Shown piece after piece: positions 2,868 through 44,347 of a DNA stretch of 64,000 nt (position 1 is the first letter of the stretch; every line of letters starts with the position of its first letter). The stretch covers positions 111,114-175,113 of the forward strand of contig CAZPXS010000005.1 in assembly GCA_964590075.1 (NCBI GenBank), read 5' to 3'. This stretch comes from an uncultured Aquificales bacterium. Lineage in GTDB: Bacteria; Thermosulfidibacterota; Thermosulfidibacteria; Thermosulfidibacterales; Thermosulfidibacteraceae. A program made the position numbers and the translations under genes. The notes below the pieces were generated by a model that was not told the DNA's origin, made no database searches, and saw only the letters and a program-made list of their open reading frames with translations.

Positions 2868-3879
2868 GATTTCTGCGCGATGGGGATACGATCCTAAGTT
2901 TTATCCTCTCTATGTGGGTTTGTATCCTCTCTCCTTCATCTATTCGAGTATAGTAAGGTTTAGAAACTTTCTCTATCTAAATGGCTTTTTGAAAAGGGTA
3001 AAACTGAATATACCCGTTATTTCCGTCGGTAACCTTACGATGGGTGGAACAGGTAAAACTCCATTCGTTATAGCCTGTGCTAGATATTTTAGAGGTAAGG
3101 GATTAAAGGTAGGTGTTGTTTCAAAGGGTTACGGTAGAAGGGAAAAGGGGTATAGGTTGATCTTAAGGGATGATATAAGAGATCCCTACGAGTGTTCCTT
3201 TCATTGGGGTGAGGAGGCTGTGCTCGTTGCTATGAAGGCTGATGTTCCTGTTATGGTAAGTGATATTAAGGCGGAGGGAGCTCTTTTACTACAACAGTAC
3301 GGCGTTGATATAGTTATAGTTGACGATGGTTTTCAGCACCTAAGGTTAGAAAGGGATGTTGATGTCCTTCTTGTGGATGGGATAAGGGGGTTCGGTAATA
3401 GATTGGTCTTTCCAGCTGGTCCTCTGAGGGAACCCTTAAGTTCCATTGGTAGGGCAGGCATCATAGTTATAACGAAAGAGAAGAATTACAGCCATCTTTA
3501 TGATATTGGTGGTGTTTTAAATAGGGTTCCCCTTTTCTTCTTTGAGGCGACCTATAATTTTGTCAGGGATGGTAGAAATGTGGATGAGTTACCGGAAGAG
3601 GTTTTTCTCGTTACTCAGGTTGCAAATCCATGGGGTGTGTTGAAGCTAATAAGTGACAGAGGTATCAGAGTAAAGGGTGTCAGGGTTTTCAGGGATCATA
3701 GAAAATACAATTACAGGGATTTTAAGGACCTTATGGGATTGGATGTTGTAATTACTGAAAAGGATCTACTTAATATGTCTAGGGATTTGGTAGAGGATAT
3801 AAGACCCTTTGTAATATCCATGGATGGAGATATAAGTGGCGATATCGGTAAATACCTGGAGGGACTCATTTGGCATTAG
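2839..3879 (+). CDS. lpxK: Tetraacyldisaccharide 4'-kinase (lipid A biosynthesis)
   Basis: P-loop VGNLTMGGTGKTPFV and an N-terminal membrane anchor like E. coli LpxK. Overlaps the valS stop by 29 nt. Confidence 0.85.
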   Translation: MMLLRVSVSEISARWGYDPKFYPLYVGLYPLSFIYSSIVRFRNFLYLNGFLKRVKLNIPVISVGNLTMGGTGKTPFVIACARYFRGKGLKVGVVSKGYGRREKGYRLILRDDIRDPYECSFHWGEEAVLVAMKADVPVMVSDIKAEGALLLQQYGVDIVIVDDGFQHLRLERDVDVLLVDGIRGFGNRLVFPAGPLREPLSSIGRAGIIVITKEKNYSHLYDIGGVLNRVPLFFFEATYNFVRDGRNVDELPEEVFLVTQVANPWGVLKLISDRGIRVKGVRVFRDHRKYNYRDFKDLMGLDVVITEKDLLNMSRDLVEDIRPFVISMDGDISGDIGKYLEGLIWH

Positions 3880-5750
3880 ATAGGGAAAAGATACTCACTA
3901 AATATAGGGAAAGGCTGGTAGTCTTTAAAAGGGTAGTATCCTTTCTTATCCTGGTTTTAATTATCACTGCCTTTTATCTCCAGGTTGTAAGGGGTAACTA
4001 CTATTACGATCTTTCCTTTAAAAATAGTGTTAGGATTTATCCTATATTTGGTTCAAGGGGGATAATCTACGATAGGGATGGCAACATCCTGGCCGATAAT
4101 TTTCCAACCCACGACCTCTATATAATAGGTGAGTATATCTTAAAGGAGTACAGAGAGTGTAACAGGGATGTTACAAAGCTAAAGGTTTACAGGTTTCTGG
4201 TGGATGAGCTGAAGTTGGATCCTAATAGTGTTAAGGAGAAGTTAGAGGAAGCTCTGGAGAATCCCTATCAGCCTGTACTTATAGGTAAGGACATTGAAGA
4301 TTGGATGGTTGCGAAGGTAGAGGCCCTAAACTGGAGTATCCCGGGATTATATACGGAAGTGGGTGAAAAGAGGTATTATCCCTATGGTCCATTATTCTCG
4401 CACGTTCTTGGTTACGTAGGTGAAGCGAATAAGGATGAGGTGGCAAGTTTAACCTATCTACCGGGTGAGTTTGTAGGTAGGGATGGTATCGAGAGGGTTT
4501 ACGAGACCTATCTAAGGGGTATAGGTGGTTGGGAACAATGGGAGGTTGACGCGGTAGGCAGAAGGGTGAGACTCTTAAGAAAAGCCATACCAACAAAGGG
4601 AAACGATCTATACACATCTCTTCTACTACCACTACAACAGAAGGCAATGGAACTTATGGGTAACCATAGTGGCGCGGTGGTTGCTATGGATCCCAATACG
4701 GGTGAGATACTATGTTACTATAGTAGTCCCACCTTTGATCCCAATGCCTTCACAAGGGGTATAAAGAAGTCCGATTGGGATAGGTTAATAAACGATCCCG
4801 GTAAGCCTTTGATAGATAGAGTAAGATACGGTTTATACCCGCCAGGTTCAACCTTTAAGATGACTATGTTACTTGCTGGCTTGATGGAGGGTAAGATAGA
4901 TCAGAATACCTCAGTTACCTGTACCGGAAAGATCTTCTTTGGTAACAGGGATTTTAGGTGCTGGAAAAAGGAAGGGCATGGTGTGGTGAGTCTATACAGG
5001 GCTCTCGTTGAGTCCTGTGATATCTACTTTTATCAGCTAGGTATCAAACTCGGAGTAGATACTATAGAAAAGTACGCGAGGATAGTAGGTTACGGTCAAA
5101 AAACCGGAATAGATATGCCCTCTGAAGCGACAGGTTTAGTTCCAAACAGGGATTGGAAATACAAAGCGTTTAAGCAACCATGGTACCCTGGGGAGACTCT
5201 TCCTTTATCGATAGGACAGGGTTATATGAGAGTTACACCTTTACAACAACTCGTTATGGTATCCTTTTTTGCGAACGGAGGTTACATAGTCCAGCCCCAT
5301 ATCAGAAAGGATATAAACCCCACTGTTATAAAGGTTGATATTCCAAAATCTTACATGGATTTGATAAGAAACGCTATGCTCGGAGTTGTTGAGGATCGGA
5401 GAGGTACAGCCCACGCTACGGTTAAGGTTAAGGATGTATTGATAGCAGGAAAGACAGGTACCGCTCAGGTTGTGGGTAGGGATATAGAGGAAAGGTATAA
5501 GGCTGGTAAACGCATATCTCGCCGGGAATACAGGGAGCATGGTTGGTTTGTAGCCTTCGCACCATTCGATAAGCCACTTATCGCAGTCTCCGTGGTTGTG
5601 GAGCATGGTGGTCATGGTTCTAGTAGTGCCGGGCCAATTGCCAAGGGGATAATTTTGGAGTATCTGAAGTATAAGGGTATTATTTCGGTTTCAGAGGAGA
5701 AAGGAATAGATGAGAGAGGTTTCGATAAACTCAACCTACCACAGGATTAA
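3870..5750 (+). CDS. mrdA: Penicillin-binding protein 2 (elongasome transpeptidase)
   Basis: 626 aa. N-terminal TM, PBP dimerisation region, SxxK (GSTFK), SCD/SxN and KTGT motifs. Start is a TTG at 3870 overlapping the lpxK stop. Confidence 0.85.
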   Translation: MALDREKILTKYRERLVVFKRVVSFLILVLIITAFYLQVVRGNYYYDLSFKNSVRIYPIFGSRGIIYDRDGNILADNFPTHDLYIIGEYILKEYRECNRDVTKLKVYRFLVDELKLDPNSVKEKLEEALENPYQPVLIGKDIEDWMVAKVEALNWSIPGLYTEVGEKRYYPYGPLFSHVLGYVGEANKDEVASLTYLPGEFVGRDGIERVYETYLRGIGGWEQWEVDAVGRRVRLLRKAIPTKGNDLYTSLLLPLQQKAMELMGNHSGAVVAMDPNTGEILCYYSSPTFDPNAFTRGIKKSDWDRLINDPGKPLIDRVRYGLYPPGSTFKMTMLLAGLMEGKIDQNTSVTCTGKIFFGNRDFRCWKKEGHGVVSLYRALVESCDIYFYQLGIKLGVDTIEKYARIVGYGQKTGIDMPSEATGLVPNRDWKYKAFKQPWYPGETLPLSIGQGYMRVTPLQQLVMVSFFANGGYIVQPHIRKDINPTVIKVDIPKSYMDLIRNAMLGVVEDRRGTAHATVKVKDVLIAGKTGTAQVVGRDIEERYKAGKRISRREYREHGWFVAFAPFDKPLIAVSVVVEHGGHGSSSAGPIAKGIILEYLKYKGIISVSEEKGIDERGFDKLNLPQD

Positions 5751-34769: not shown

Positions 34770-36196
34770 GACGTTGTACCATCCGGCTTATCCTCAAGCA
34801 CTATACCTTTGCTCTTAAGATAATCTCTGATTTCATCGGCCCTTTTGAAGTTTTTCTCCTTTCTCGCTACCCTCCTTTCCTCAACCAGTTTCTCTATCTC
34901 TTCAACGGGAAGAGGTAAACCTTCGCTACTCATTTTGAACCATCTATCAGGTTCCTCTAAAAGTATTCCAAACACATCGTTTATGTCATTTATGAATTCC
35001 CTCATTATCCTGGATATCGATATTTTTTGAGATTTTGATAGTCCTCCGTGCTCTATGAGCCTATTGTAATCCCTTACGGCTTCGAAAAATTTTGCAAGGG
35101 CTATAGCGGTGTTAAAATCATCATCCATGGCACTATAGAAACCTTCCCTGTATTCATTAAACTTTTGCTCAATATCCTTACTGATACCTGACTCTTGATC
35201 GTAGGAGTCTTTTAGGATTTCCCCTATCCTTTCCTTTGTTCTATAGAGTTTATCAAGTGCTTCCTTCTCCGCTTCGATCTTTTCGTAGCTAAAGTCAAAG
35301 GGACTTCTATAGTGCACTCTCAGAAAGGCGAGTTTTAAAGCATCCGGATGGTAGCTGTTTAGTATATCCCTTATAAGAATTATGTTACCAAGGGACTTAC
35401 TCATCTTCTCTCCCTTTATATTTACAAAACCGTTGTGTAACCAGTATCTTACGAAAGGCTTACCCGTTGCTGATTCGCTCTGGGCTATCTCGTTTTCATG
35501 GTGTGGAAATATCAGATCCATACCCCCACCATGGATGTCGAAGGTTTCTCCGAGATACTTCATACTCATGGCGGAACATTCTATATGCCATCCCGGTCTT
35601 CCCTTACCCCATGGTGATTCCCAGTATGGTTCTCCGGGCTTTGATGATTTCCATAGGGCAAAATCAAGTGGATTCTTTTTTCTCTCATCCACTTCGATTC
35701 TTGCACCCGCTAACAATTCCTCCTTCTTTCTACCCGATAGTTTCCCATAATCCTTGAACTTATCTACCTCAAAGTATACATCTCCATCTACAACATAGGC
35801 GTAACCCTTATCCACGAGGATATTCACAAGATCGATTATCTCCTTTATGTGCTCTGTAGCCTTGGGTTCATAGGTTGGTTTTATAAGGTTGAGTTTTTCA
35901 GTATCCTCGTAGTAAGCCAGTATGTACTTTTCGGCTATCTCTTTCCAGCTTTTATTTTCTCTGTTAGCCATATTTATTATCTTATCGTCTATATCTGTAA
36001 AGTTTCTAACGAACTTTACCTTATAGCCCTTCTTCATAAGGTATCTTACTATTACGTCGAATACCACGAGGTTTCTCGCATGACCTATATGGCAATAATC
36101 GTAAACAGTTACTCCGCAGGTGTATATTCCTATCTCTCCATCTCTTAGAGGTATAAGATCCTCTTTTTTAAAACCCATTGTGTTTGTCACCAACAT
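34751..36196 (-). CDS. cysS: Cysteinyl-tRNA synthetase
   Basis: 481 aa. HIGH motif (CHIGHARN), KMSKS motif (KMSKS), zinc-binding Cys. AAGGAGGAG RBS. Confidence 0.9.
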
Positions 36197-37247
36197 GACT
36201 AAACTCCTCCTTGATCTTTAGTATATCTTCAAGGCTCTCCATAAAAGCATCGGTAATGGCAGGATCGAATTGTTTCCCCGAATTTTCCTTTATAATCCTT
36301 ATTACTTCCCAGGTATCCATGGCTTTTCTGTAAACTCTATCTGAGGTACAGGCATCGAAAAAGTCCACAATTGCCACGATTCTTGCCTCAAGTGGTATCT
36401 CCTCGCCTCTAATACCAAAGGGATAGCCTGTACCATCCCATCTCTCGTGATGGTATAGTGCTATGTTTGCAGCACATACCAACAGAGGATGTTCGGAACC
36501 ACTTAGTATATCATAGCCAATAAGAGTGTGTTTCTTTATAATCTCGAATTCTTCCTCCGTTAATTTACCAGGTTTTAGCAAGATGTTGTCAGGGATTCCT
36601 ATCTTACCTATATCATGCATGGGTGAGGCTAACCCGATCAATCTACACCTTTCTCTGTTTAATCCAAGGGTTTCGGCTATCTTTCTTGACATTATACCTA
36701 CTCTCTTTGTATGCCATCCTGTATCGTCGTCTCTGTATTCTGCCGCTTTACCCAATCTATGGATAACCTCTTCGTGTACAGCCTCGAGTTTATTTATGGC
36801 TTCCTTTAGGATTTTTGTTCTCTTTTCCACCTCCTCCTCGAGTAACCTATTATAGCTATCCATAAGTTCATAATAGTTCTTAACCTTTATGGAGTTGGTT
36901 AGTCTTATGATAAGGTCTTCTCTATCATAAGGTTTGGTTATAAAATCGTGTGCTCCCTTTTCGAAGGCTATTTTCTTTGTTTCGCTATCTTCTAAAGCTG
37001 TAACGACTATAACGGGTGTTCTATTTAGATCGTACTTTTCGGATAGTCTTTCCAATACCTCAATACCACTCATTTCTGGCATTATGATATCTAATATAAC
37101 CACATCAGGTTTTTCCCTTTCATATAATTCTATAGCTTCCTTTCCACTAGTTGCGGCTATAACCTCGTAACCATAGAGTCTAAGGATTCCAGAGAGGGTT
37201 ATAATATTTATATCCTCATCGTCAACCACCAAAACCTTTCCTTTCAT
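36168..37247 (-). CDS. Response regulator with HD-GYP c-di-GMP phosphodiesterase output domain
   Basis: CheY-like receiver (VLVVDDE ... D of ILDIIMP) plus HD-GYP ([11 protein letters not shown]). ATG at 37247 with TAGGAGGG RBS; the ORF track extends it to 37277. Confidence 0.8.
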
Positions 37248-37329
37248 TTTCCCTCCTAACCTGATATTATAATACAAACTAAACTATAAAACAAACTAAA
37301 CATAATACAATCTTGGTGGAGGGGTAAAG

Positions 37330-37731
37330 ATGTACCATAAAATATCCTTGAGATCAACGAAGCGCGAAGAACTGATAGATATTACGGGGGATGTTAGAAA
37401 GGTGGTAAGGGCAAGTGGTGTTAAAAACGGTGTGTGTTATCTCTACGTACCTCACACAACGGCAGGTATAATAATAAATGAAAATGCCGATCCATCGGTT
37501 AAGGAGGATATTGAAGCGGTATTGAGTAAACTTGTACCTAGATCCGCAAGTTACAGACATCTGGAAGGAAATGCCGATAGTCACATCAAATCTTCTATAG
37601 TTGGTAACACTATCTTTGTTTTTGTGGAGGATGGTGATATAGTTCTCGGTACCTGGCAGGGTATATTTTTTGCGGAGTTTGACGGTCCAAGAACGAGAAA
37701 TGTCTTGGTTAAGATTGTCAGGGAGGGTTGA
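37330..37731 (+). CDS. yjbQ: YjbQ/UPF0047 family protein (secondary thiamine-phosphate synthase-like)
   Basis: 133 aa with the family motifs [11 protein letters not shown] and GTWQGIF. GGAGGGG RBS. Confidence 0.75.
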
Positions 37732-37736
37732 TCATT

Positions 37737-38510
37737 ATGGATAATAAACATCCCTTTGAAAGGCTTGTATGGATAATGAAGGAACTGAGGTCGAAATGTC
37801 CCTGGGATAGGGTTCAGACGAGGGAATCCCTAAAACCCTACATAATAGAGGAAGCTTACGAGGTCGTATCCGCGATTGAGGATAACGATCCTTCCAAGTT
37901 AAGGGAAGAGCTGGGGGATCTACTGTTACAGATAGTGTTTCAGGCAGAGATAGCGAGTGAAAGGGAGGAATTCGATATATACGATGTGATAGAATTTCTG
38001 TGTGATAAATTAATAAGAAGGCACCCCCATGTTTTCGGTAATCTGAAGGTTGAGGATAAGGAGAGGGTACTCGAAAATTGGGAGAAGATAAAGGCTAAGG
38101 AGAAAAGGGAAAAAGAGAGTGTTTTAGACGGTGTCCCCGACAATTTGCCCTCTTTACTTGCTGCCTATAGGCTTCAGGAGAAGGCTTCGCGCCTTGGTTT
38201 TGATTGGTCCAGAATAGAAGATGTATGGAGGAAGGTGGGTGAGGAGCTCGATGAACTAAGGGAAGCGATGGAGAAGGAGGATAAGGAGGAGATAGAGGCC
38301 GAGTTGGGAGACCTATTATTTGCAATAGCTAACCTCGCAAGATTCCTGGATGTGGACCCCGAAGGTGCTTTGAGAAAGTGTAATAGGAGATTCAAGGAGA
38401 GGTTCAAATATATAGAGAGGAGCTTAAAGGAGAGAGGATTAAAGTGGGAGGATGTTGATCTTGAATATCTGGATAAATTGTGGGAGGAGGCAAAGAGAAA
38501 AGGACTGTAA
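37737..38510 (+). CDS. mazG: Nucleoside triphosphate pyrophosphohydrolase MazG
   Basis: Tandem MazG domains (CPWDRVQT ... [12 protein letters not shown]; second copy [14 protein letters not shown]). Confidence 0.8.
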
Positions 38511-38513
38511 TTT

Positions 38514-39752
38514 ATGATCAGGAAAAGGCTGGTAATCTTTGTCGCCCTTTTAAATTTCGCGATACTATGTGTAATTGGTTTGTTAACTTATATAAGGTAT
38601 GATCTTGTTGTTAAAAGAGCACTGAGGTTACAGGCTATCGGTTTTATGATACCCTTAAAGAGCTTGGTGAAAAATATGGATCCTAGTCTATTAAGCAGAA
38701 ATCCAAATCTATTCTACGACATGCTACTAGATGAAAGGTGGGAAGGGCTGGCGTACGTTGCACTCCTTGATGAAAGGGGAAGATTCGTTGTCCATTCAAA
38801 CCTTCGTCTTATAGGAAAGTTCAGCCATTCCTTTGAAAACACAAAAAACTTTCCTTTGGAAAGGATAAGAAGGCTAAAAACTGGCTACGAAGTGTATGAG
38901 TACGATGATATGGTCAAGGTAGGGAATAGAAATTATATACTGAGAGTGGTTTTATTTACAGATCCAGTTAAAAGTAGTTTCTACGTTGTCAAAGTGATAT
39001 CATTTGTTTCATTCTTGCTTGCATTTAGTATGTTGCCAATAGGTTATGGTTTTTATTATGTTTTGAAAAGGGAAGAAAAGATAAGATCAAAGCTCGATGA
39101 ATTAGAAAAAATAGCTTTTATATCAAAAATTTTTGCTCATGAGATTAGAAATCCTCTTGCTACGATAAAGGGATTTGTGGAATTTTTAATGGAAAAATTA
39201 GAAAGTAATATATATATTGAGTATTTATACGTTATGAAAAGCGAAGTTGAAAAAATAGAAAAATTGATTCAAAAGCTTGTTGCCTTTAGTTATGGTGTAA
39301 ATGCTTCTACAGAGAGTTTTGACCTTGTTGTTTTTCTAAAGGATCTGATAGAGAGGTTTTCTAGAATTTATCCTGATGTAGATTTTAAAATCTATTCTAA
39401 ACGGGATAGTATAGAGGTTAAATATCCGAGAGAGAAGCTCGAGATTGTTATGGAAAACATAATATCCAACGCCGTGGAGGCTTTTGGTGACGATTTTAGG
39501 GGTACTCCTCAGGTTGTAGTTGAAGTTGGTGAAGTCCCTGATTATTATTTAATAAAGGTTGTGGACAATGGAGTTGGTATAGAAGAGGATGTACTTAAAA
39601 AGGTGTTTGATCCCTTTTTCACCACTAAGGAAAAGGGGATGGGATTAGGTCTTGCTATAGTTTACAGGTTCGTTAAGGAGATGGGCGGAAAGATAAGAAT
39701 AGAGAGTGTCAGGGGTAGGGGAACGGAGGTTACCCTATGTCTTCCAAAATAA
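38514..39752 (+). CDS. Sensor histidine kinase (two TM segments flanking a ~130-aa periplasmic domain; ZraS/HydH-like layout)
   Basis: HisKA H-box (FAHEIRNPLATIKGF) and HATPase_c N/G boxes (ISNAVEAF; DNGVGI; GMGLGLAIV). The central coding region is extremely AT-rich. Confidence 0.8.
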   Translation: MIRKRLVIFVALLNFAILCVIGLLTYIRYDLVVKRALRLQAIGFMIPLKSLVKNMDPSLLSRNPNLFYDMLLDERWEGLAYVALLDERGRFVVHSNLRLIGKFSHSFENTKNFPLERIRRLKTGYEVYEYDDMVKVGNRNYILRVVLFTDPVKSSFYVVKVISFVSFLLAFSMLPIGYGFYYVLKREEKIRSKLDELEKIAFISKIFAHEIRNPLATIKGFVEFLMEKLESNIYIEYLYVMKSEVEKIEKLIQKLVAFSYGVNASTESFDLVVFLKDLIERFSRIYPDVDFKIYSKRDSIEVKYPREKLEIVMENIISNAVEAFGDDFRGTPQVVVEVGEVPDYYLIKVVDNGVGIEEDVLKKVFDPFFTTKEKGMGLGLAIVYRFVKEMGGKIRIESVRGRGTEVTLCLPK

Positions 39753-41038
39753 TGGTTGTTGAGGATGATAGATCCTTCGCCTTTTTCCTAAAGACCCTTC
39801 TGGTTGATAGCGGCTTTAACGTTACCGTATTTAACGATCCTAGTGAAGCTTTGAAAAAACTTTTAGTTGAACAACCGAGGTTAGTCCTTGTTGATCTCAA
39901 AATGCCTAAGATGGATGGTTTAACCTTTATTGAGAGGGCAAAGAGTATACTACCCTTTTCGGATTTTATTGTAATTACTGCCTTTGGAAGTATCCCGAGT
40001 GCGGTTGAAGCTATCAAGAAGGGGGCTACCGATTATGTTACAAAGCCTATACCGGATGTGAAGGAGTTTATAGGTAGGATAAGATCGATCGCTGGAAAGA
40101 AGGATTTTTTAGATAGATCTACCAGTGATATACCACCACTTGATGTTGTTTTTGCCGGTATCGAGGATATCTACGAAAGGATAGTTGAGGTTGCCAAAAC
40201 CGACATAACGGTAACTCTCTACGGTGAAACTGGTACTGGTAAAAGCCTGATTGCAAGGATAATTCACAATCTGAGTGGAAGGAAAGGTGAATTCGTTGAT
40301 ATAAACTGCGCCAGTATCCCGGAAACTCTTATGGAGAGTGAACTTTTCGGTTTCAATAAGGGTGCCTTCACTGGAGCTATAAAGGATAAACCGGGGAAGT
40401 TTGAAATTGCGGATGGGGGCACTATATTTTTCGATGAGATCGGTGAGATGAGTTACGCTTTACAGGCCAAGCTTCTCAAGGTTATTCAGGAAAAGAGATT
40501 TGAGAGGATAGGGGGAGTAAAGCCTATGGAGGTTGATGTAAGATTCATATTTGCCACAAACAAAAAATTGGAAGAACTAGTTAGGGAGGGGAAGTTTAGA
40601 GAGGATCTTTACTATAGGATAAATGTTTTTCCCATAAACATACCTCCACTACGGGATAGGAAGGAGCATATACTTAAAATAGCGGGTTACATAGCCGATA
40701 GGGTATTTAGGAAGTTAGGTAGGGAAAAGAAAGAGTTTAGTAATAGATCGATAGATATACTTTTAAATTACAGTTGGCCGGGTAACATTAGGGAACTCGA
40801 GAATGTCATAGAAAGGTCTATACTTATGAGTAAAGGCGATTATATAGAGGTAGAGATCAATGTTACAAACTATAGTCTAAAAGAGGGAAACACCACTGAT
40901 TTAAAGGAGTTGGAGAAAATAGCTATAATAGATGCTCTTAAGAAGAGCGGAGGAAACAAATCAAAGGCATCAAAAATACTAGGTATATCTCTTAGAACGC
41001 TTTATAATAAACTTAAGAAGTACAACCTTGACTATTGA
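39737..41038 (+). CDS. Sigma-54-dependent response regulator (NtrC/ZraR family)
   Basis: Receiver domain, AAA+ sigma-54 activator domain ([12 protein letters not shown]; GAFTGA; EIGEMS), and C-terminal Fis-type HTH ([19 protein letters not shown]). Overlaps the kinase gene by 16 nt. Confidence 0.85.
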
Positions 41039-41045
41039 TACTTGA

Positions 41046-41555
41046 CTATTGATAATACCACATGAAGGATCTCATCCTTTTTATAAAGGGTCTGGTACAT
41101 AGTCTATCGGAACAATTTTGCCAACAGGCACATCTTGGACCTCTGAATATATAGGTCATCCTGGTTTTAATGTCTCTTATAGCCCTTGCTACTATTATTA
41201 CCTCTATCGGTTTCTCCTGTTTTAGTATCTTTGTACCTATGATCTCCAGGACATCCCCTTCCTTGATATTACAGTTTATTCTTCTATAATACCAGCTTGG
41301 CCCAAGAATAACGGTATAGATGTTATTGTCTCTCTCAACCTTTAGCATAACAGGCCCCTGTTCGGGGACAAGTATATCCACCACTTTACCCTTAATATAT
41401 AGTTCCGTATTTTCATCGTAGTCTTGAAATATGAGCTCTTCTTCAGCGTAGGCGTATCTGTCGAGTATTGAAAAATTCATGGTAACTATTATTAAGAGAA
41501 AAATTAAGAGATGGAGGAGGCCCTTATAACGGGCACTCCTCCCTTTATGGATCAA
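41046..41555 (-). CDS. Exported hypothetical protein, OB-fold-like (BOF/YgiW-like pattern), Cys-rich C-terminus
   Basis: The TTG start overlaps the upstream gene's TGA (TTGA). Signal peptide MIHKGRSARYKGLLHLLIFLLIIVT...AYA|EEE. Mature part shows alternating hydrophobic beta-strand pattern (GKVVDILVPEQGPVMLKVERDNNIYTVILGP...GDVLEIIGTKI). Tail is CACWQNCSDRLC. Confidence 0.45.
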   Translation of the reverse strand: MIHKGRSARYKGLLHLLIFLLIIVTMNFSILDRYAYAEEELIFQDYDENTELYIKGKVVDILVPEQGPVMLKVERDNNIYTVILGPSWYYRRINCNIKEGDVLEIIGTKILKQEKPIEVIIVARAIRDIKTRMTYIFRGPRCACWQNCSDRLCTRPFIKRMRSFMWYYQ

Positions 41556-42037
41556 CCGCAGCAGCACGAACAAGCAGCCCCCATCTCCATTTCTAATCTG
41601 CATGCCCCTTTGTGCCCTTTGTTAAATTTATGGCCATATCCCGGACTGAGGATATGGCCAACTACAAAGGGAGGTAGGCCGGATGAGATTGCCTTCTTCT
41701 CCAATTCAAACCTCAGTTCACTAATCTCCTTTTGCTTTTCGATTACCCTGTTCCAGTCCGGATTTTGTGTACAGGCTAAACTCCTTATTTCAGCTCTCAG
41801 CTTTATTATCCTATCAATGGTAGACTTATTCTCCTCTTTAAACTTCTCTATCCTCTGGGGTGGGGTATTAGCCAACTGCTGTTTCATATTGGGACAGTAG
41901 CAACCATAGTAATGGTAATAGTTAGTACCGTTATCCCCACTTGCCGTGGATCCCTGAGACTCCGCTTTTACTACCACTAAAGTACCTATCATTGCCGCTA
42001 CGAGAACCCCAATTCCTAATTTCTTAACCATTCCCAT
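41552..42037 (-). CDS. Periplasmic ZraP/CpxP/Spy-like (heavy-metal-resistance-family-like) protein with Cys/His-rich tail
   Basis: Signal peptide MGMVKKLGIGVLVAAMIGTLVVVKA, Tyr/His/Cys motif YYHYYGCYCP, helical K/E-rich middle, C-terminal GYGHKFNKGHKGAC...CSCCCG. GGAGGGGAG RBS. A sigma-54 promoter lies upstream. Confidence 0.5.
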   Translation of the reverse strand: MGMVKKLGIGVLVAAMIGTLVVVKAESQGSTASGDNGTNYYHYYGCYCPNMKQQLANTPPQRIEKFKEENKSTIDRIIKLRAEIRSLACTQNPDWNRVIEKQKEISELRFELEKKAISSGLPPFVVGHILSPGYGHKFNKGHKGACRLEMEMGAACSCCCG

Positions 42038-42071
42038 TCTCCCCTCCTAACGTGAAGTTTTGTTTATTATA

Positions 42072-42088
42072 AGCTAAATTTGTGCCAC
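42072..42088 (-). promoter_or_regulatory. Candidate sigma-54 (-24/-12) promoter for the ZraP-like operon
   Basis: Minus strand reads TGGCACaaattTAGCt: GG and GC at correct 10-nt spacing, TGGCAC exact, -12 element TaGC (one mismatch from TTGC). Lies about 35 nt upstream of the ATG. Confidence 0.5.
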
Positions 42089-42157
42089 AAGAATATAGAT
42101 ATTTAAATTACTGTTAAAATTAAACTTTTTATTACAAACTAGTTCGGAGAAGGTGGT

Positions 42158-42203
42158 AAATTTGCAATTTTTTCAAACTACACTATGAAAAATTTGCAAA
42201 TTT
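42158..42203. promoter_or_regulatory. Two AAATTTGCAA(A/T)TTT palindromic elements, candidate enhancer (UAS) sites for the NtrC-family regulator
   Basis: AAATTTGCAATTTT at 42158-42171 and the perfect 14-bp palindrome AAATTTGCAAATTT at 42190-42203. They sit about 70-130 bp upstream of the sigma-54 promoter. Confidence 0.35.
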
Positions 42204-44268
42204 ATGATATAAACCTTGCATCTACCACGTACATCCTTCCATCTTTTGTTATTCTGAGTGGGTTTATCTCACCTTCCTTGAGTATGTCTATGGCTATGGG
42301 TATGTGGGAGAATACACTAACGAGTTTGGCAAGACTCTCAATATCGACCTTAACACCCCCTCTTATTCCTGTTAGGATCTTGTAAGATTTTATGGACTTT
42401 ATCATATCTATGGCCTCTTCGACACTTGTAGGAGATACGCTGAAACTTACATCCTTTAAAACCTCAACGAAGATACCACCGAGACCGAACATGGTCATAG
42501 GTCCAAAGGTATCATCCTTACTAAAACCTATTATAATGTCTATGCCATCTCCCACCATCTCTTCTATAACATATCCCTCTGGCTCCCTTCCGAGTTTTTT
42601 CCTAACCCTATCTCCCATACCATCGATTTCCCTTAATAACTCCTCGGTTGATCTTATACCTACCACTACACCCCCTATATCCGACTTATGTAGTATCTCA
42701 GGATCATACACTTTAAGAACAAGTGGGAAGCCTATCTCTAAACTCGCCCTTTCAGCCTCATCTTTACTTCTTACCAGTATCGCCTTGGCTACAGGAAATC
42801 CTATTTTCTCCAGTATCTTTAAAGAGTCAAATTCGGGGTAACTTCTCCCCGGCTGGATATCCTCAATGAGACTAGATCTAATTTTCTCCACCAATTCTAC
42901 ATCTTCCCTTATGCTATAGTGCTTTTCCTTTAAGTACCTATTTATGGTGTCTAAGGCCTTGATTCCGCGTTCCGGAAAGGGAAAGTTAGGTATTCCATTT
43001 TCTCTCAGTATTCTTGTGCCCTCCGATACCCTTGCTCTACCTATAAAGCTGGCTATTATAGGTTTCCTTCCTTTGTGTTTTACTATCGATTTTGCTACAT
43101 CAGGGATATCTGTCATCAACTGTGGTGTTAAAATAACGAGTATTGCGTCAACATTCTCATCATCTAAAAGTGCTTCAATGGCCCACTCGTATCTTTTGTG
43201 ATCCGCGTCTCCTATCACATCAACGGGATTGTAGAAGTTAGCCATGGGAGGAAGCTTTTCCTTAAGTCTTTCTATGGTCTTCTTCGATAGTTCCGCAAGT
43301 TTCAACGTGGAGGATTCTATGGCATCTGAGGCTATTATACCTGGACCTCCTGCATTTGTAACTATGCCTATTCTTTCAACCGGTTTTACCTCTACGCTCG
43401 AGATCAGTCTTGCAATATCGAAGAGTTCTTCAAGGGTGTTTACCCTCAGGATACCAGCTTTCTTAAAGGCAGCATCGTAAGCCGTATCACTACCTGTAAT
43501 TGATCCTGTGTGACTACTTGCCGCTTTCTTACCCGAAGCCGTCCTTCCTACCTTTATCGCAACAATCGGTTTTTTGAGGGAAGCCTTGGATGCAGCTTCA
43601 ATAAACCTTCTGCCATCCTTTAATCCCTCTATATACATCAGTATTATCTCCGTTTCCGGATCATCGGCGAGAAACTCTATAAATTCTGTTGCCGTAAGAT
43701 CAGCCTGGTTACCCAGACTAACTACCTTTGAAAACCCTACCCTTTCGTCCAGGGCCCAATCAAAGAATGCACTCAGAACAGCTCCTGATTGCGATATAAC
43801 TCCTACGGGTCCCTTAGGGGGAAATACCCTTGCAAAGGTCGCGTTGAGGTTTGAGTGTGTATCCATCACACCTAGGCAATTGGGACCAACGAGTCTTATA
43901 CCGTATTTCCTTGCGGTACTTAAAAGTTCATCCTGTAGTCTTTTACCTTCCTCTGTTTCACCAAAACCCGCACTTATTACCACTACCGCCTTTGTCCCTA
44001 TTCTACCAAGTTTATCAAGCGCATCTATACAGGCTTTCGGGGGAATCACTAAAATGGCTAAATCTGGAGCCTCAGGAAGCCTATCCATATCGGGATAGCA
44101 TTCAAAACCCATCACATCTGTATAATTTGGGTTTACACAATATACCTTTCCTTTATAATTAGCATCCTTTATATTTTTTACTATAGAGTATCCAACCTTT
44201 GTTGGATTTAGAGTTGCTCCAACTATCGCTAAGCTTTTTGGCTTAAAGAATTTTTCGATATCCTTCAT
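42202..44268 (-). CDS. Acetyl-CoA synthetase (ADP-forming), fused alpha/beta (NDP-forming acyl-CoA synthetase family)
   Basis: N-terminal CoA-binding plus succinyl-CoA-synthetase-like domains (SLAIVGAT...; catalytic His region SHTGSITG), C-terminal ATP-grasp. ATG at 44268 with TGGAGGT RBS. Confidence 0.75.
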   Translation of the reverse strand: MKDIEKFFKPKSLAIVGATLNPTKVGYSIVKNIKDANYKGKVYCVNPNYTDVMGFECYPDMDRLPEAPDLAILVIPPKACIDALDKLGRIGTKAVVVISAGFGETEEGKRLQDELLSTARKYGIRLVGPNCLGVMDTHSNLNATFARVFPPKGPVGVISQSGAVLSAFFDWALDERVGFSKVVSLGNQADLTATEFIEFLADDPETEIILMYIEGLKDGRRFIEAASKASLKKPIVAIKVGRTASGKKAASSHTGSITGSDTAYDAAFKKAGILRVNTLEELFDIARLISSVEVKPVERIGIVTNAGGPGIIASDAIESSTLKLAELSKKTIERLKEKLPPMANFYNPVDVIGDADHKRYEWAIEALLDDENVDAILVILTPQLMTDIPDVAKSIVKHKGRKPIIASFIGRARVSEGTRILRENGIPNFPFPERGIKALDTINRYLKEKHYSIREDVELVEKIRSSLIEDIQPGRSYPEFDSLKILEKIGFPVAKAILVRSKDEAERASLEIGFPLVLKVYDPEILHKSDIGGVVVGIRSTEELLREIDGMGDRVRKKLGREPEGYVIEEMVGDGIDIIIGFSKDDTFGPMTMFGLGGIFVEVLKDVSFSVSPTSVEEAIDMIKSIKSYKILTGIRGGVKVDIESLAKLVSVFSHIPIAIDILKEGEINPLRITKDGRMYVVDARFIS

Positions 44269-44318
44269 TTTGTACCTCCATTTAGTTTTTTTATTTATTA
44301 AATAATCTTCCATGAGAG

Positions 44319-44347
44319 TTGTCAAAGAATGCTTGTTCAGTTATAAT
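44319..44347 (+). promoter_or_regulatory. Sigma-70-type promoter for cinA
   Basis: TTGTCA, 17-nt spacer, TATAAT (44342-44347). The ATG at 44357 is only about 10 nt after the -10, suggesting a leaderless or near-leaderless transcript. The same hexamer reads TTGACA on the minus strand, giving the divergent acs promoter. Confidence 0.4.

Follow-up and report, generated by a model that had tools for sequence, protein, structure and literature searches.

A probable ZraPSR-type sigma-54 stress module with a MamS/MamX-type partner protein in an uncultured Thermosulfidibacteraceae bacterium

Introduction

Two small genes for predicted exported proteins face a sensor kinase and an NtrC-type response regulator in the genome of an uncultured Aquificales bacterium, and the question they raise is whether the four together form a version of the ZraPSR envelope stress system and, if so, what part the second small protein would have in it. 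The DNA analysed here, referred to as the window, is a stretch of 64,000 nucleotides (nt) of contig CAZPXS010000005.1 (assembly GCA_964590075.1, positions 111,114 to 175,113, family Thermosulfidibacteraceae in GTDB). ZraPSR, an envelope stress system that responds to zinc and has links to antibiotic tolerance, has been studied almost only in enterobacteria. It is treated as an envelope stress response analogous to CpxPAR, and the references cited in the same source are given there as establishing sigma-54 control of Escherichia coli zraP by the adjacent two-component system (PMC12314577). An earlier annotation made from the letters of the window, the sequence-only reading, had proposed that the kinase and regulator converge on a sigma-54-promoted operon whose first product resembles ZraP, CpxP or Spy and whose second is an OB-fold partner.

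Results

Our analysis indicates that the locus is probably an envelope or metal stress module of the ZraPSR type that depends on sigma-54 and includes an additional conserved protein, and we infer the role in metal stress. Its features are collected in Table 1.

Table 1. Features of the two-component locus and its convergent operon, in window coordinates.
Feature	Position	Strand	Description
Histidine kinase	38514..39752	+	First transmembrane segment (TM1), ~120-aa periplasmic domain, TM2, DHp, CA
NtrC-type response regulator/sigma-54 enhancer-binding protein (EBP)	39737..41038	+	Receiver, AAA+ with GAFTGA, Fis-type helix-turn-helix (HTH)
Gene 2	41046..41555	-	169 aa from TTG 41555; predicted exported or membrane-anchored MamS_MamX-family OB-fold protein
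GC-rich RNA hairpin	41513..41542	-	GGAGGAG-U-GCCC ... GGGC-CUCCUCC, 10 nt past the gene 1 stop, within the first gene 2 codons
Gene 1	41552..42037	-	161 aa; predicted exported ZraP-like protein
Shine-Dalgarno sequence	42048-42039	-	AGGAGGGGAG; GGAGG core 5 nt from the gene 1 ATG (42037); read from sequence
Sigma-54 promoter	42087-42072	-	TGGCAC-N5-TAGCT (TGGCACAAATTTAGCT); -24 GG 42086-42085, -12 GC 42074-42073
Upstream activator sequence (UAS)	42157..42204		Two 13-bp sites, 42163-42175 and 42186-42198; TGCAAATTTTTCA and TGAAAAAATTGCA on the coding strand

The product of gene 1 begins with MGMVKKLGIGVLVAAMIGTLVVVKA followed by ES, a predicted signal peptide with a hydrophobic segment at residues 3-27 that is likely to be cleaved after VKA25. 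An N-terminal region rich in Tyr, His and Cys follows, then a helical hairpin core at residues 51-130, a GYGHKFNKGHKG motif and finally a Cys-rich tail whose last residues are CSCCCG. The signal peptide, the YYHYYGCYCP motif and the GYGHKFNKGHKGAC...CSCCCG segment singled out by the sequence-only reading are all found in the translation. Its comparison with ZraP, CpxP and Spy stands at the level of remote homology and fold, and fails as a direct match to PF13801. Word-indexed searches returned only 2 to 6 relatives (two homologues for gene 1), and exhaustive profile searching found more: an HMMER search with a three-sequence profile against 1.8 billion proteins added 48 further relatives of gene 1 (E 3.8e-11 to 1e-3). 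Among the 46 remote relatives that could be aligned, with the window protein left out, 33 match PF13801 Metal_resist (best 5.8e-17) and a few match LTXXQ. Alignment of the lineage profile with 39 remote relatives by hhalign reached 99.5% (E 7.5e-23) over the helical core, and the enlarged profile matches Salmonella ZraP (3LAY) at 5.6e-17. The AF2 model of residues 51-130 is a confident helical hairpin (pLDDT 86-95); the top six Foldseek matches in the PDB are all chains of 3LAY (probability 0.98-1.0, TM(target) 0.50-0.68), with CnrX and CpxP lower in the ranking. At the LTXXQ position, where relatives have LTPEQxxK, the protein carries the degenerate LANTPPQRIEKF (TPPQ). On profile and model evidence, gene 1 is best described as encoding a divergent member of the ZraP/Metal_resist superfamily and not a ZraP orthologue, for reasons weighed in the Discussion.

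The tail of the protein is less constant than its core. The window protein has GAACSCCCG, and its homologue P0012 in L083, a third syntenic lineage in which gene 1 is ~34% identical, has an uninterrupted Cys-rich tail (...RCHCGCCACGCCG). In the Thermosulfidibacteraceae relative L001, with a gene 1 that is 48% identical, the gene 1 frame reads ...KDA, stop, HFCHGD, stop, LGDASHCCCGNQPGAVLWCCCG, stop, with two TAG codons and a terminal TGA (L001:10466-10558, equivalent to window 41552-41610). This interrupted Cys/His-rich tail is homologous to those of the window and L083 and identical in six independent assemblies, and it represents either a recent relic or readthrough of UAG. In L007, a low-coverage contig, the tail is in another frame. 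The Nitrospiraceae homologues have Gly/Met-rich tails instead of Cys-rich ones, and across the sequences compared the Cys-rich tails are lineage-specific additions. We rejected the idea that the tail is a by-product of overlap with the Leu-rich N-terminus of gene 2 (CTG CTG read as TGC TGC one base on), because the L083 tail is Cys-rich with an overlap of only 4 nt (ATGA). General recoding of TAG was considered for the in-frame codons of L001; in the window, however, TAG serves as a normal stop, and the fragments of a synthetase gene beside the L001 operon stem from frameshifts and deletions. As for L007, positions 1-47 of this metagenome contig are a Nextera transposase adaptor (…AGATGTGTATAAGAGACAG), and hence the MCIRDS with which the database protein P0001 starts is an artefact.

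The second gene was listed as an open reading frame (ORF) of 41046-41603, and gene callers start it at ATG 41603, TTG 41573, GTG 41567 or the equivalents in relatives. Its most likely start is instead the TTG at 41555-41553, which overlaps the stop codon of gene 1 as TTGA, because L083 has ATGA at the same place and L001 the same TTGA, where one annotation also starts; translational coupling to gene 1 is therefore implied. The N-terminus (MIHKGRSARYKG-LLHLLIFLLIIV-...AYA/EEE) provides a plausible signal peptide or anchor at residues ~8-35, and the protein carries the motifs YDENTE and LGPSWYY, while near its C-terminus a CxCWQNCxDxLC segment precedes a basic tail; the CACWQNCSDRLC tail reported in the sequence-only reading is present. 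All four lineages of the window group keep a C-terminal RG-x2-CxCWxxC, of which the Nitrospiraceae homologues retain only FRD-x2-C-x-P-x-W. Precomputed matches to PF26390 MamS_MamX exist for P0003 (99% identical), for P0004 and for the L001 and L083 homologues; local Pfam scans returned no PF26390 for gene 2 or P0004, that copy of Pfam apparently being without the model, and scanning gene 2 against NCBIfam yielded no informative match. In the AF2 model a helix at the N-terminus leads into a beta-barrel (residues 49-142), the tail being of low confidence, and Foldseek matches it to the OB domain of LysRS (E 3e-5), so the OB-fold-like pattern suspected earlier is borne out. The family suggested for it is not. 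Proteins of the BOF/YgiW family are also small exported OB-fold proteins, induced by two-component systems under envelope stress, but gene 2 has no match to PF04076 at E<=10, YgiW was not found among its top structural matches, and its relatives belong to PF26390. From these matches and the model, we assign gene 2 to the MamS_MamX-type OB folds, with an N-terminal membrane segment.

The concentration of Cys clusters in the two proteins of this lineage suggests thiophilic metals or sulfur species as ligands in an anoxic periplasm, and this makes room for a reading in which the same regulatory architecture answers sulfur, polysulfide or thiol-redox stress instead of metal, the Cys segments carrying persulfide or polysulfide, or sensing redox state, in the periplasm of a thermophile that metabolises sulfur. 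In its favour, the nearest relatives bear a Thermosulfidibacteraceae annotation, and CCCG, CxCWxxC and GCCCG are concentrated in this lineage and absent from the Nitrospiraceae homologues. However, the conserved core of ZraP-like protein and OB fold is independent of the clusters, the tail is interrupted in L001, and the characterised members (ZraP and the CnrX type) act on metals or misfolded proteins, so that we regard it as rather unlikely.

At the junction of the two genes the hairpin of Table 1 is followed by a U-rich stretch, and the best 45-nt local fold containing it has -23.1 kcal/mol. Folds of the junction (96-99 nt) have z ~-2.4 for both the window and L001, but -0.45 for L007, and an equivalent hairpin of different sequence lies at the same position in L001 (10541-10568), L007 and L083 (5434-5452). 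Because of its imperfect U-tract, this hairpin was missed by a generic terminator scan. It may serve as an attenuator within the operon or as an element stabilising the gene 1 mRNA. Strong intercistronic hairpins are also found in many ZraP-like/MamS-like pairs of other phyla, with -32 to -35 kcal/mol in Desulfobaccales and Desulfobacterales.

The pairing of the two genes is not peculiar to the window. A scan of one genome per species gave 70 loci encoding a MamS-like protein, and local profile searches on the six-frame ORFs of these loci placed a ZraP-like gene directly upstream, in the same orientation, in at least 19 of the 70. Conversely, a MamS_MamX gene is immediately downstream in four of five remote gene 1 homologues examined (P0009, P0010, P0012, P0015); the 1.6-kb contig of the fifth, P0011, stops 183 nt past the gene. 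In the Nitrospiraceae loci L011, L013 and L014, kinase, EBP, ZraP-like and MamS-like genes follow one another on one strand, with a sigma-54 promoter, and the kinase sensor domains are homologous to that of the window kinase (E 1e-10 to 1e-17). The second partner gene proposed in the sequence-only reading thus recurs with the other three gene types beyond the convergent arrangement of the window. To judge from these genomic contexts, the ZraP-like/MamS-like pair recurs in several anaerobic bacterial phyla. We did not find the pair described in the literature searched, and among the matches listed in a metagenome pattern scan for the conserved gene 1/gene 2 junction, which were unrelated loci, none encoded the pair. 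MamS-like genes often occur as two or three paralogues per locus, and metagenome-assembled genomes of Bacteroidota/Rhodothermales type encode MamS-like tandem-domain proteins with a Gly/Arg/Met-rich linker (these cases together: loci L010, L012, L015-L018, L041, L050 and proteins P0006-P0008).

This distribution bears on the proposal that the MamS-like OB fold and the ZraP-like protein handle mineral particles, controlling nucleation or growth of periplasmic metal sulfide or iron minerals much as MamS and MamX act on magnetite crystals, with the two-component system sensing mineral or metal load. Nitrospirota and Desulfobacterota include magnetotactic lineages. Record titles show the pair to be common in both phyla. 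Gene 2 is assigned to the MamS_MamX family, and MamS, modelled as an OB fold on a YgiW template, affects crystal size when deleted (PMC3905215). Yet no other magnetosome genes occur in the window neighbourhood or the listed loci, and the domain turns up widely in genomes whose fetched flanks show no further sign of magnetosome genes, which leaves mineral handling an unlikely function for the pair.

Turning to the proteins that would control this operon, the kinase ORF contains HisKA and HATPase_c in a Pfam scan that gave no match to HAMP or PAS, and hydrophobic segments at residues ~1-33 and ~152-180 enclose its extracytoplasmic domain. The regulator, which shares a 16-nt overlap with the kinase ORF, matches Response_reg (3.9e-22), Sigma54_activat (3.1e-66), HTH_8 (1.4e-16) and AAA_lid_14, and its GAFTGA is encoded at nt 40361; with receiver, AAA+ domain and HTH_8 it has the predicted make-up of an NtrC-family EBP. 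The sensor kinase with a periplasmic domain and the NtrC-type regulator of the sequence-only reading are thereby confirmed, as is the approach of two opposite-strand genes toward the regulator, the gap being 7 nt (from the regulator stop to the end of gene 2) and not the 8 bp first reported. The kinase is 25% identical to E. coli ZraS over 371 residues that include part of the periplasmic domain, and this domain can be aligned, weakly in the case of ZraS, with those of the L001, L083 and Nitrospiraceae kinases and ZraS, with invariant G78, G89, H94 and S95. Neither protein reaches an NCBIfam equivalog cut-off (ZraS model, 129 bits against 479; ZraR model, 340 against 760), and AtoS and AtoC are the best-scoring, still sub-threshold, models. 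Because the kinase starts 4 nt past the mazG stop and no sigma-54 motif lies upstream of it, both genes are probably co-transcribed with yjbQ-mazG, and they appear not to be autoregulated through sigma-54, unlike E. coli zraSR. A response regulator-HD_5 (HD-GYP-type) fusion gene (36168-37277, minus strand) is divergent from yjbQ-mazG-kinase-regulator (37330-38510 onward, plus strand), and since L001 and L083 show synteny across the entire arrangement, the kinase and regulator could belong to a conserved unit of greater extent.

Gene 1 has a leader of 164 nt that holds the -24/-12 element and two 13-bp sites of the type TGCAA-N3-TTGCA. The promoter, TGGCACAAATTTAGCT, is one mismatch from TGGCAC-N5-TTGCW and places the predicted transcription start near 42061. 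Taken alone the pattern is not significant: at <=1 mismatch the 64 kb contain two matches where 0.79 are expected by chance. The second of these, TGGCGCGGTGGTTGCT at 4670-4685 on the plus strand, is inside an ORF of 626 aa (3870-5750) and is probably a chance match. The element rises above chance because it is conserved in relatives, adjoins an enhancer-like pair of sites and recurs in homologous pairs. It is kept as TGGCATATGATTAGCT in L001 and as TGGCAAAGATTTAGCT in L083, and in L001, whose leader has otherwise diverged, a TGGCA-N6-TTAGCTTAT block, both half-sites and the distance from UAS to promoter are retained. With GG and GC fixed and <=2 mismatches allowed, 14 of the 22 homologous pairs have a sigma-54 motif just before their ZraP-like gene, the chance expectation being 0.034 per 420 nt; two of the eight pairs that have none are cut by contig ends. 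With its exact GG/GC spacing and an EBP gene nearby, the element can be classed from sequence as a sigma-54 promoter, and the near-consensus element upstream of a strong ribosome-binding site proposed in the sequence-only reading proved to be present and conserved.

The UAS has its centre ~95 nt upstream of the -24 element and consists of two inverted 19-nt arms (42157-42175 and 42186-42204) that are 95% complementary and separated by a 10-nt spacer. The 64 kb contain only five matches to TGCAANNNTTGCA at <=1 mismatch, where 0.92 are expected, and this repeat accounts for two of the five, spaced 23 nt apart. Both sites are retained in L001, where the half-site spacer is 20 nt, exactly 10 nt longer than in the window, and in L083, where TGAAAAAGTTGCA is followed after 19 nt by TGCAAATTTTTCA; the start-to-start spacings of 23, 33 and 32 nt (window, L001, L083) differ by about one helical turn. 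The leaders of the Nitrospiraceae loci L008-L014 have paired TGCA-N5-TGCA sites, 20-22 nt apart, in the corresponding position, and the Nitrospiraceae EBPs share with the window regulator the HTH segment LGISLR[ST]L-x-YK[IL]K-x-Y. In five Syntrophales and Smithellaceae loci (L015, L016, L017, L039, L049), sigma-54 promoters are accompanied by upstream repeats of TGGATA/TATCCA, not TGCAA/TTGCA, and because of this difference the same gene pair is probably controlled there by another EBP.

Could another EBP also drive the promoter of the window, the adjacent kinase and regulator being no regulators of this operon and their convergence incidental? The convergent arrangement leaves no control region shared by the two sides, the kinase and regulator seem to belong to the yjbQ-mazG transcription unit, and some Nitrospiraceae pair loci, such as L010, have no EBP within 5 kb. 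But the adjacency is kept in three diverged syntenic lineages and, in a different and colinear order, in Nitrospiraceae, whose loci have a homologous sensor domain, a similar HTH and the same type of UAS, and we consider control by another activator to be quite improbable.

Upstream of the operon lies a gene for an ADP-forming acetyl-CoA synthetase (42202-44325, minus strand), which encodes an unbroken protein of 707 aa here and of 696 aa in L083; its counterpart in the L001 lineage (L001:8500-9750) is a decayed pseudogene with frameshifts, stops and deletions. That the UAS is merely the terminator of this gene is most improbable and was rejected: the repeat begins at its stop codon, can form a long hairpin and drew the sole match of an Rfam scan of 40900-42400 (a chance-level mir-235 on the palindrome), but the stem is AU-rich with no U-tract behind it, and the half-sites are conserved while their spacer shifts from 10 to 19-20 nt, persist in L001 beside the pseudogene, and recur in Nitrospiraceae, in which the EBP gene occupies the upstream position.

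Discussion

Several observations weigh against a ZraPSR-type module. Gene 1 has no Pfam or NCBIfam match in direct scans (PF13801 at E<=0.1), and its 48%-identical homologue P0002 has no PF13801 match at E<=10. The lineage-only profile did not retrieve 3LAY from PDB sequences at E<=10, the direct hhalign comparison with E. coli ZraP is weak (probability 7.8%, E 0.0044, in the correct register), and the Foldseek E-value of the 3LAY matches is only 0.09. The failure of the lineage profile and the weakness of the direct comparison are why we speak of a divergent superfamily member and not of an orthologue; since PF13801 is not reached either, the link between gene 1 and ZraP is transitive plus structural. 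Its Cys tail, being interrupted by stops in L001 and out of frame in L007, does not look essential everywhere. On the regulatory side, the regulator is no nearer to ZraR (40% identity) than to AtoC (38%), and its HTH and UAS look more AtoC-like; no rpoN was found within the 64-kb window; six Desulfobaccales/Desulfobacterales pairs have no recognisable sigma-54 motif; and the Syntrophales pairs have a different UAS despite their sigma-54 promoters.

Nevertheless, a ZraPSR-type module remains the reading we prefer, and it would work as follows. The kinase would sense a periplasmic cue through its ZraS-like extracytoplasmic domain and phosphorylate the NtrC-type regulator, which would then bind the two conserved sites ~95 nt upstream of the -24/-12 element and activate sigma-54 RNA polymerase, with transcription from near 42061. 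The transcript would give the ZraP-like helical-hairpin protein, assigned by homology and predicted fold, for export to the periplasm, where, by analogy with ZraP, it may act as a chaperone or metal buffer and feed back on the kinase. Gene 2, translationally coupled through TTGA, would yield the OB-fold protein, exported or membrane-anchored, as its putative partner. The conserved GC-rich hairpin past the end of gene 1 would probably make the ZraP-like protein more abundant than this partner.

Compared with ZraPSR of E. coli and Salmonella, the locus, as known from its sequence, has the same two-TM kinase with a periplasmic alpha/beta-type sensor and no HAMP/PAS, an NtrC-type regulator, and a target predicted to be sigma-54-dependent and to encode an exported helical-hairpin protein with Gly/His/Cys-rich ends, for which Salmonella ZraP is the best fold match in the PDB. 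It differs in being convergent instead of divergent, in having no sigma-54 promoter for the kinase and regulator genes, in the degenerate LTXXQ (TPPQ) of a protein that lies below Pfam and direct-profile detection, and in its TGCAA-N3-TTGCA-like UAS; it also has a second gene, for an OB-fold protein and predicted to be co-transcribed, whereas E. coli zraP stands alone, divergent from zraSR. The CpxP and Spy proteins belong to the same superfamily of periplasmic helical-hairpin modulators and chaperones, with an accessory protein feeding back on a kinase, but CpxR is an OmpR-type, sigma-70 regulator and CpxAR has no OB-fold partner.

A sigma-54 regulator tied to zraP has also been reported outside Enterobacteria: in Desulfovibrio vulgaris, the two-component system DVU3381/DVU3382, with a GAFTGA regulator, is assigned to zraP (DVU3384) and labelled 'envelope stress response' (PMC4641369). 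The regulon reported there is limited to zraP and the operon of kinase and regulator and lists no MamS-like partner, and that regulator autoregulates, whereas the window regulator apparently does not. AtoSC offers the best, if sub-threshold, NCBIfam matches for the window kinase and regulator. The regulator HTH resembles LGISRRALMYKLQEY and the half-sites resemble TGCAGAAATTTGCA of the ato promoter (PMC3118216), but their spacing is N6 in ato and N5 here, and the atoDAEB targets (fatty-acid catabolism) are unrelated. AtoS is also larger than the window kinase (609 aa by coordinates), in which Pfam gives no match to HAMP/PAS. Cytoplasmic sensor domains such as HAMP/PAS are a feature of AtoS.

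With the MamS and MamX proteins, gene 2, as judged from its homologues, shares the PF26390 domain and the order of an N-terminal hydrophobic anchor followed by an OB-fold barrel, as predicted for MamS (PMC3905215); it has neither magnetosome gene context nor magnetochrome haems, and it is distinguished by its pairing with a ZraP-like gene under a sigma-54 promoter and by the lineage-specific CxCWxxC. We would tentatively extend this likeness, as a possibility with the odds against it, to a general statement: the MamS/MamX OB domain would be the dedicated partner of ZraP-type proteins, the two forming a widespread envelope or metal stress pair, hitherto unrecognised and mostly under sigma-54 control, from which the MamS and MamX of magnetosomes were recruited. 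The genomes on which this extension draws are those of the Thermosulfidibacteraceae relatives, Nitrospirota and Desulfobacterota. Were it true, it would offer a first clue to what the MamS domain does.

For the biology of envelope stress, the locus suggests that the logic of ZraPSR operates, with additions, in deep-branching thermophilic anaerobes and in Nitrospiraceae. It supplies a clear enhancer motif, and a promoter, for an EBP that is as yet uncharacterised. Many genomes conserve a MamS/MamX-type gene next to the ZraP-like one, which suggests that in these bacteria the ZraP-type protein has a membrane-proximal co-worker, and the pair offers a testable context for the MamS domain in relation to magnetosome formation.

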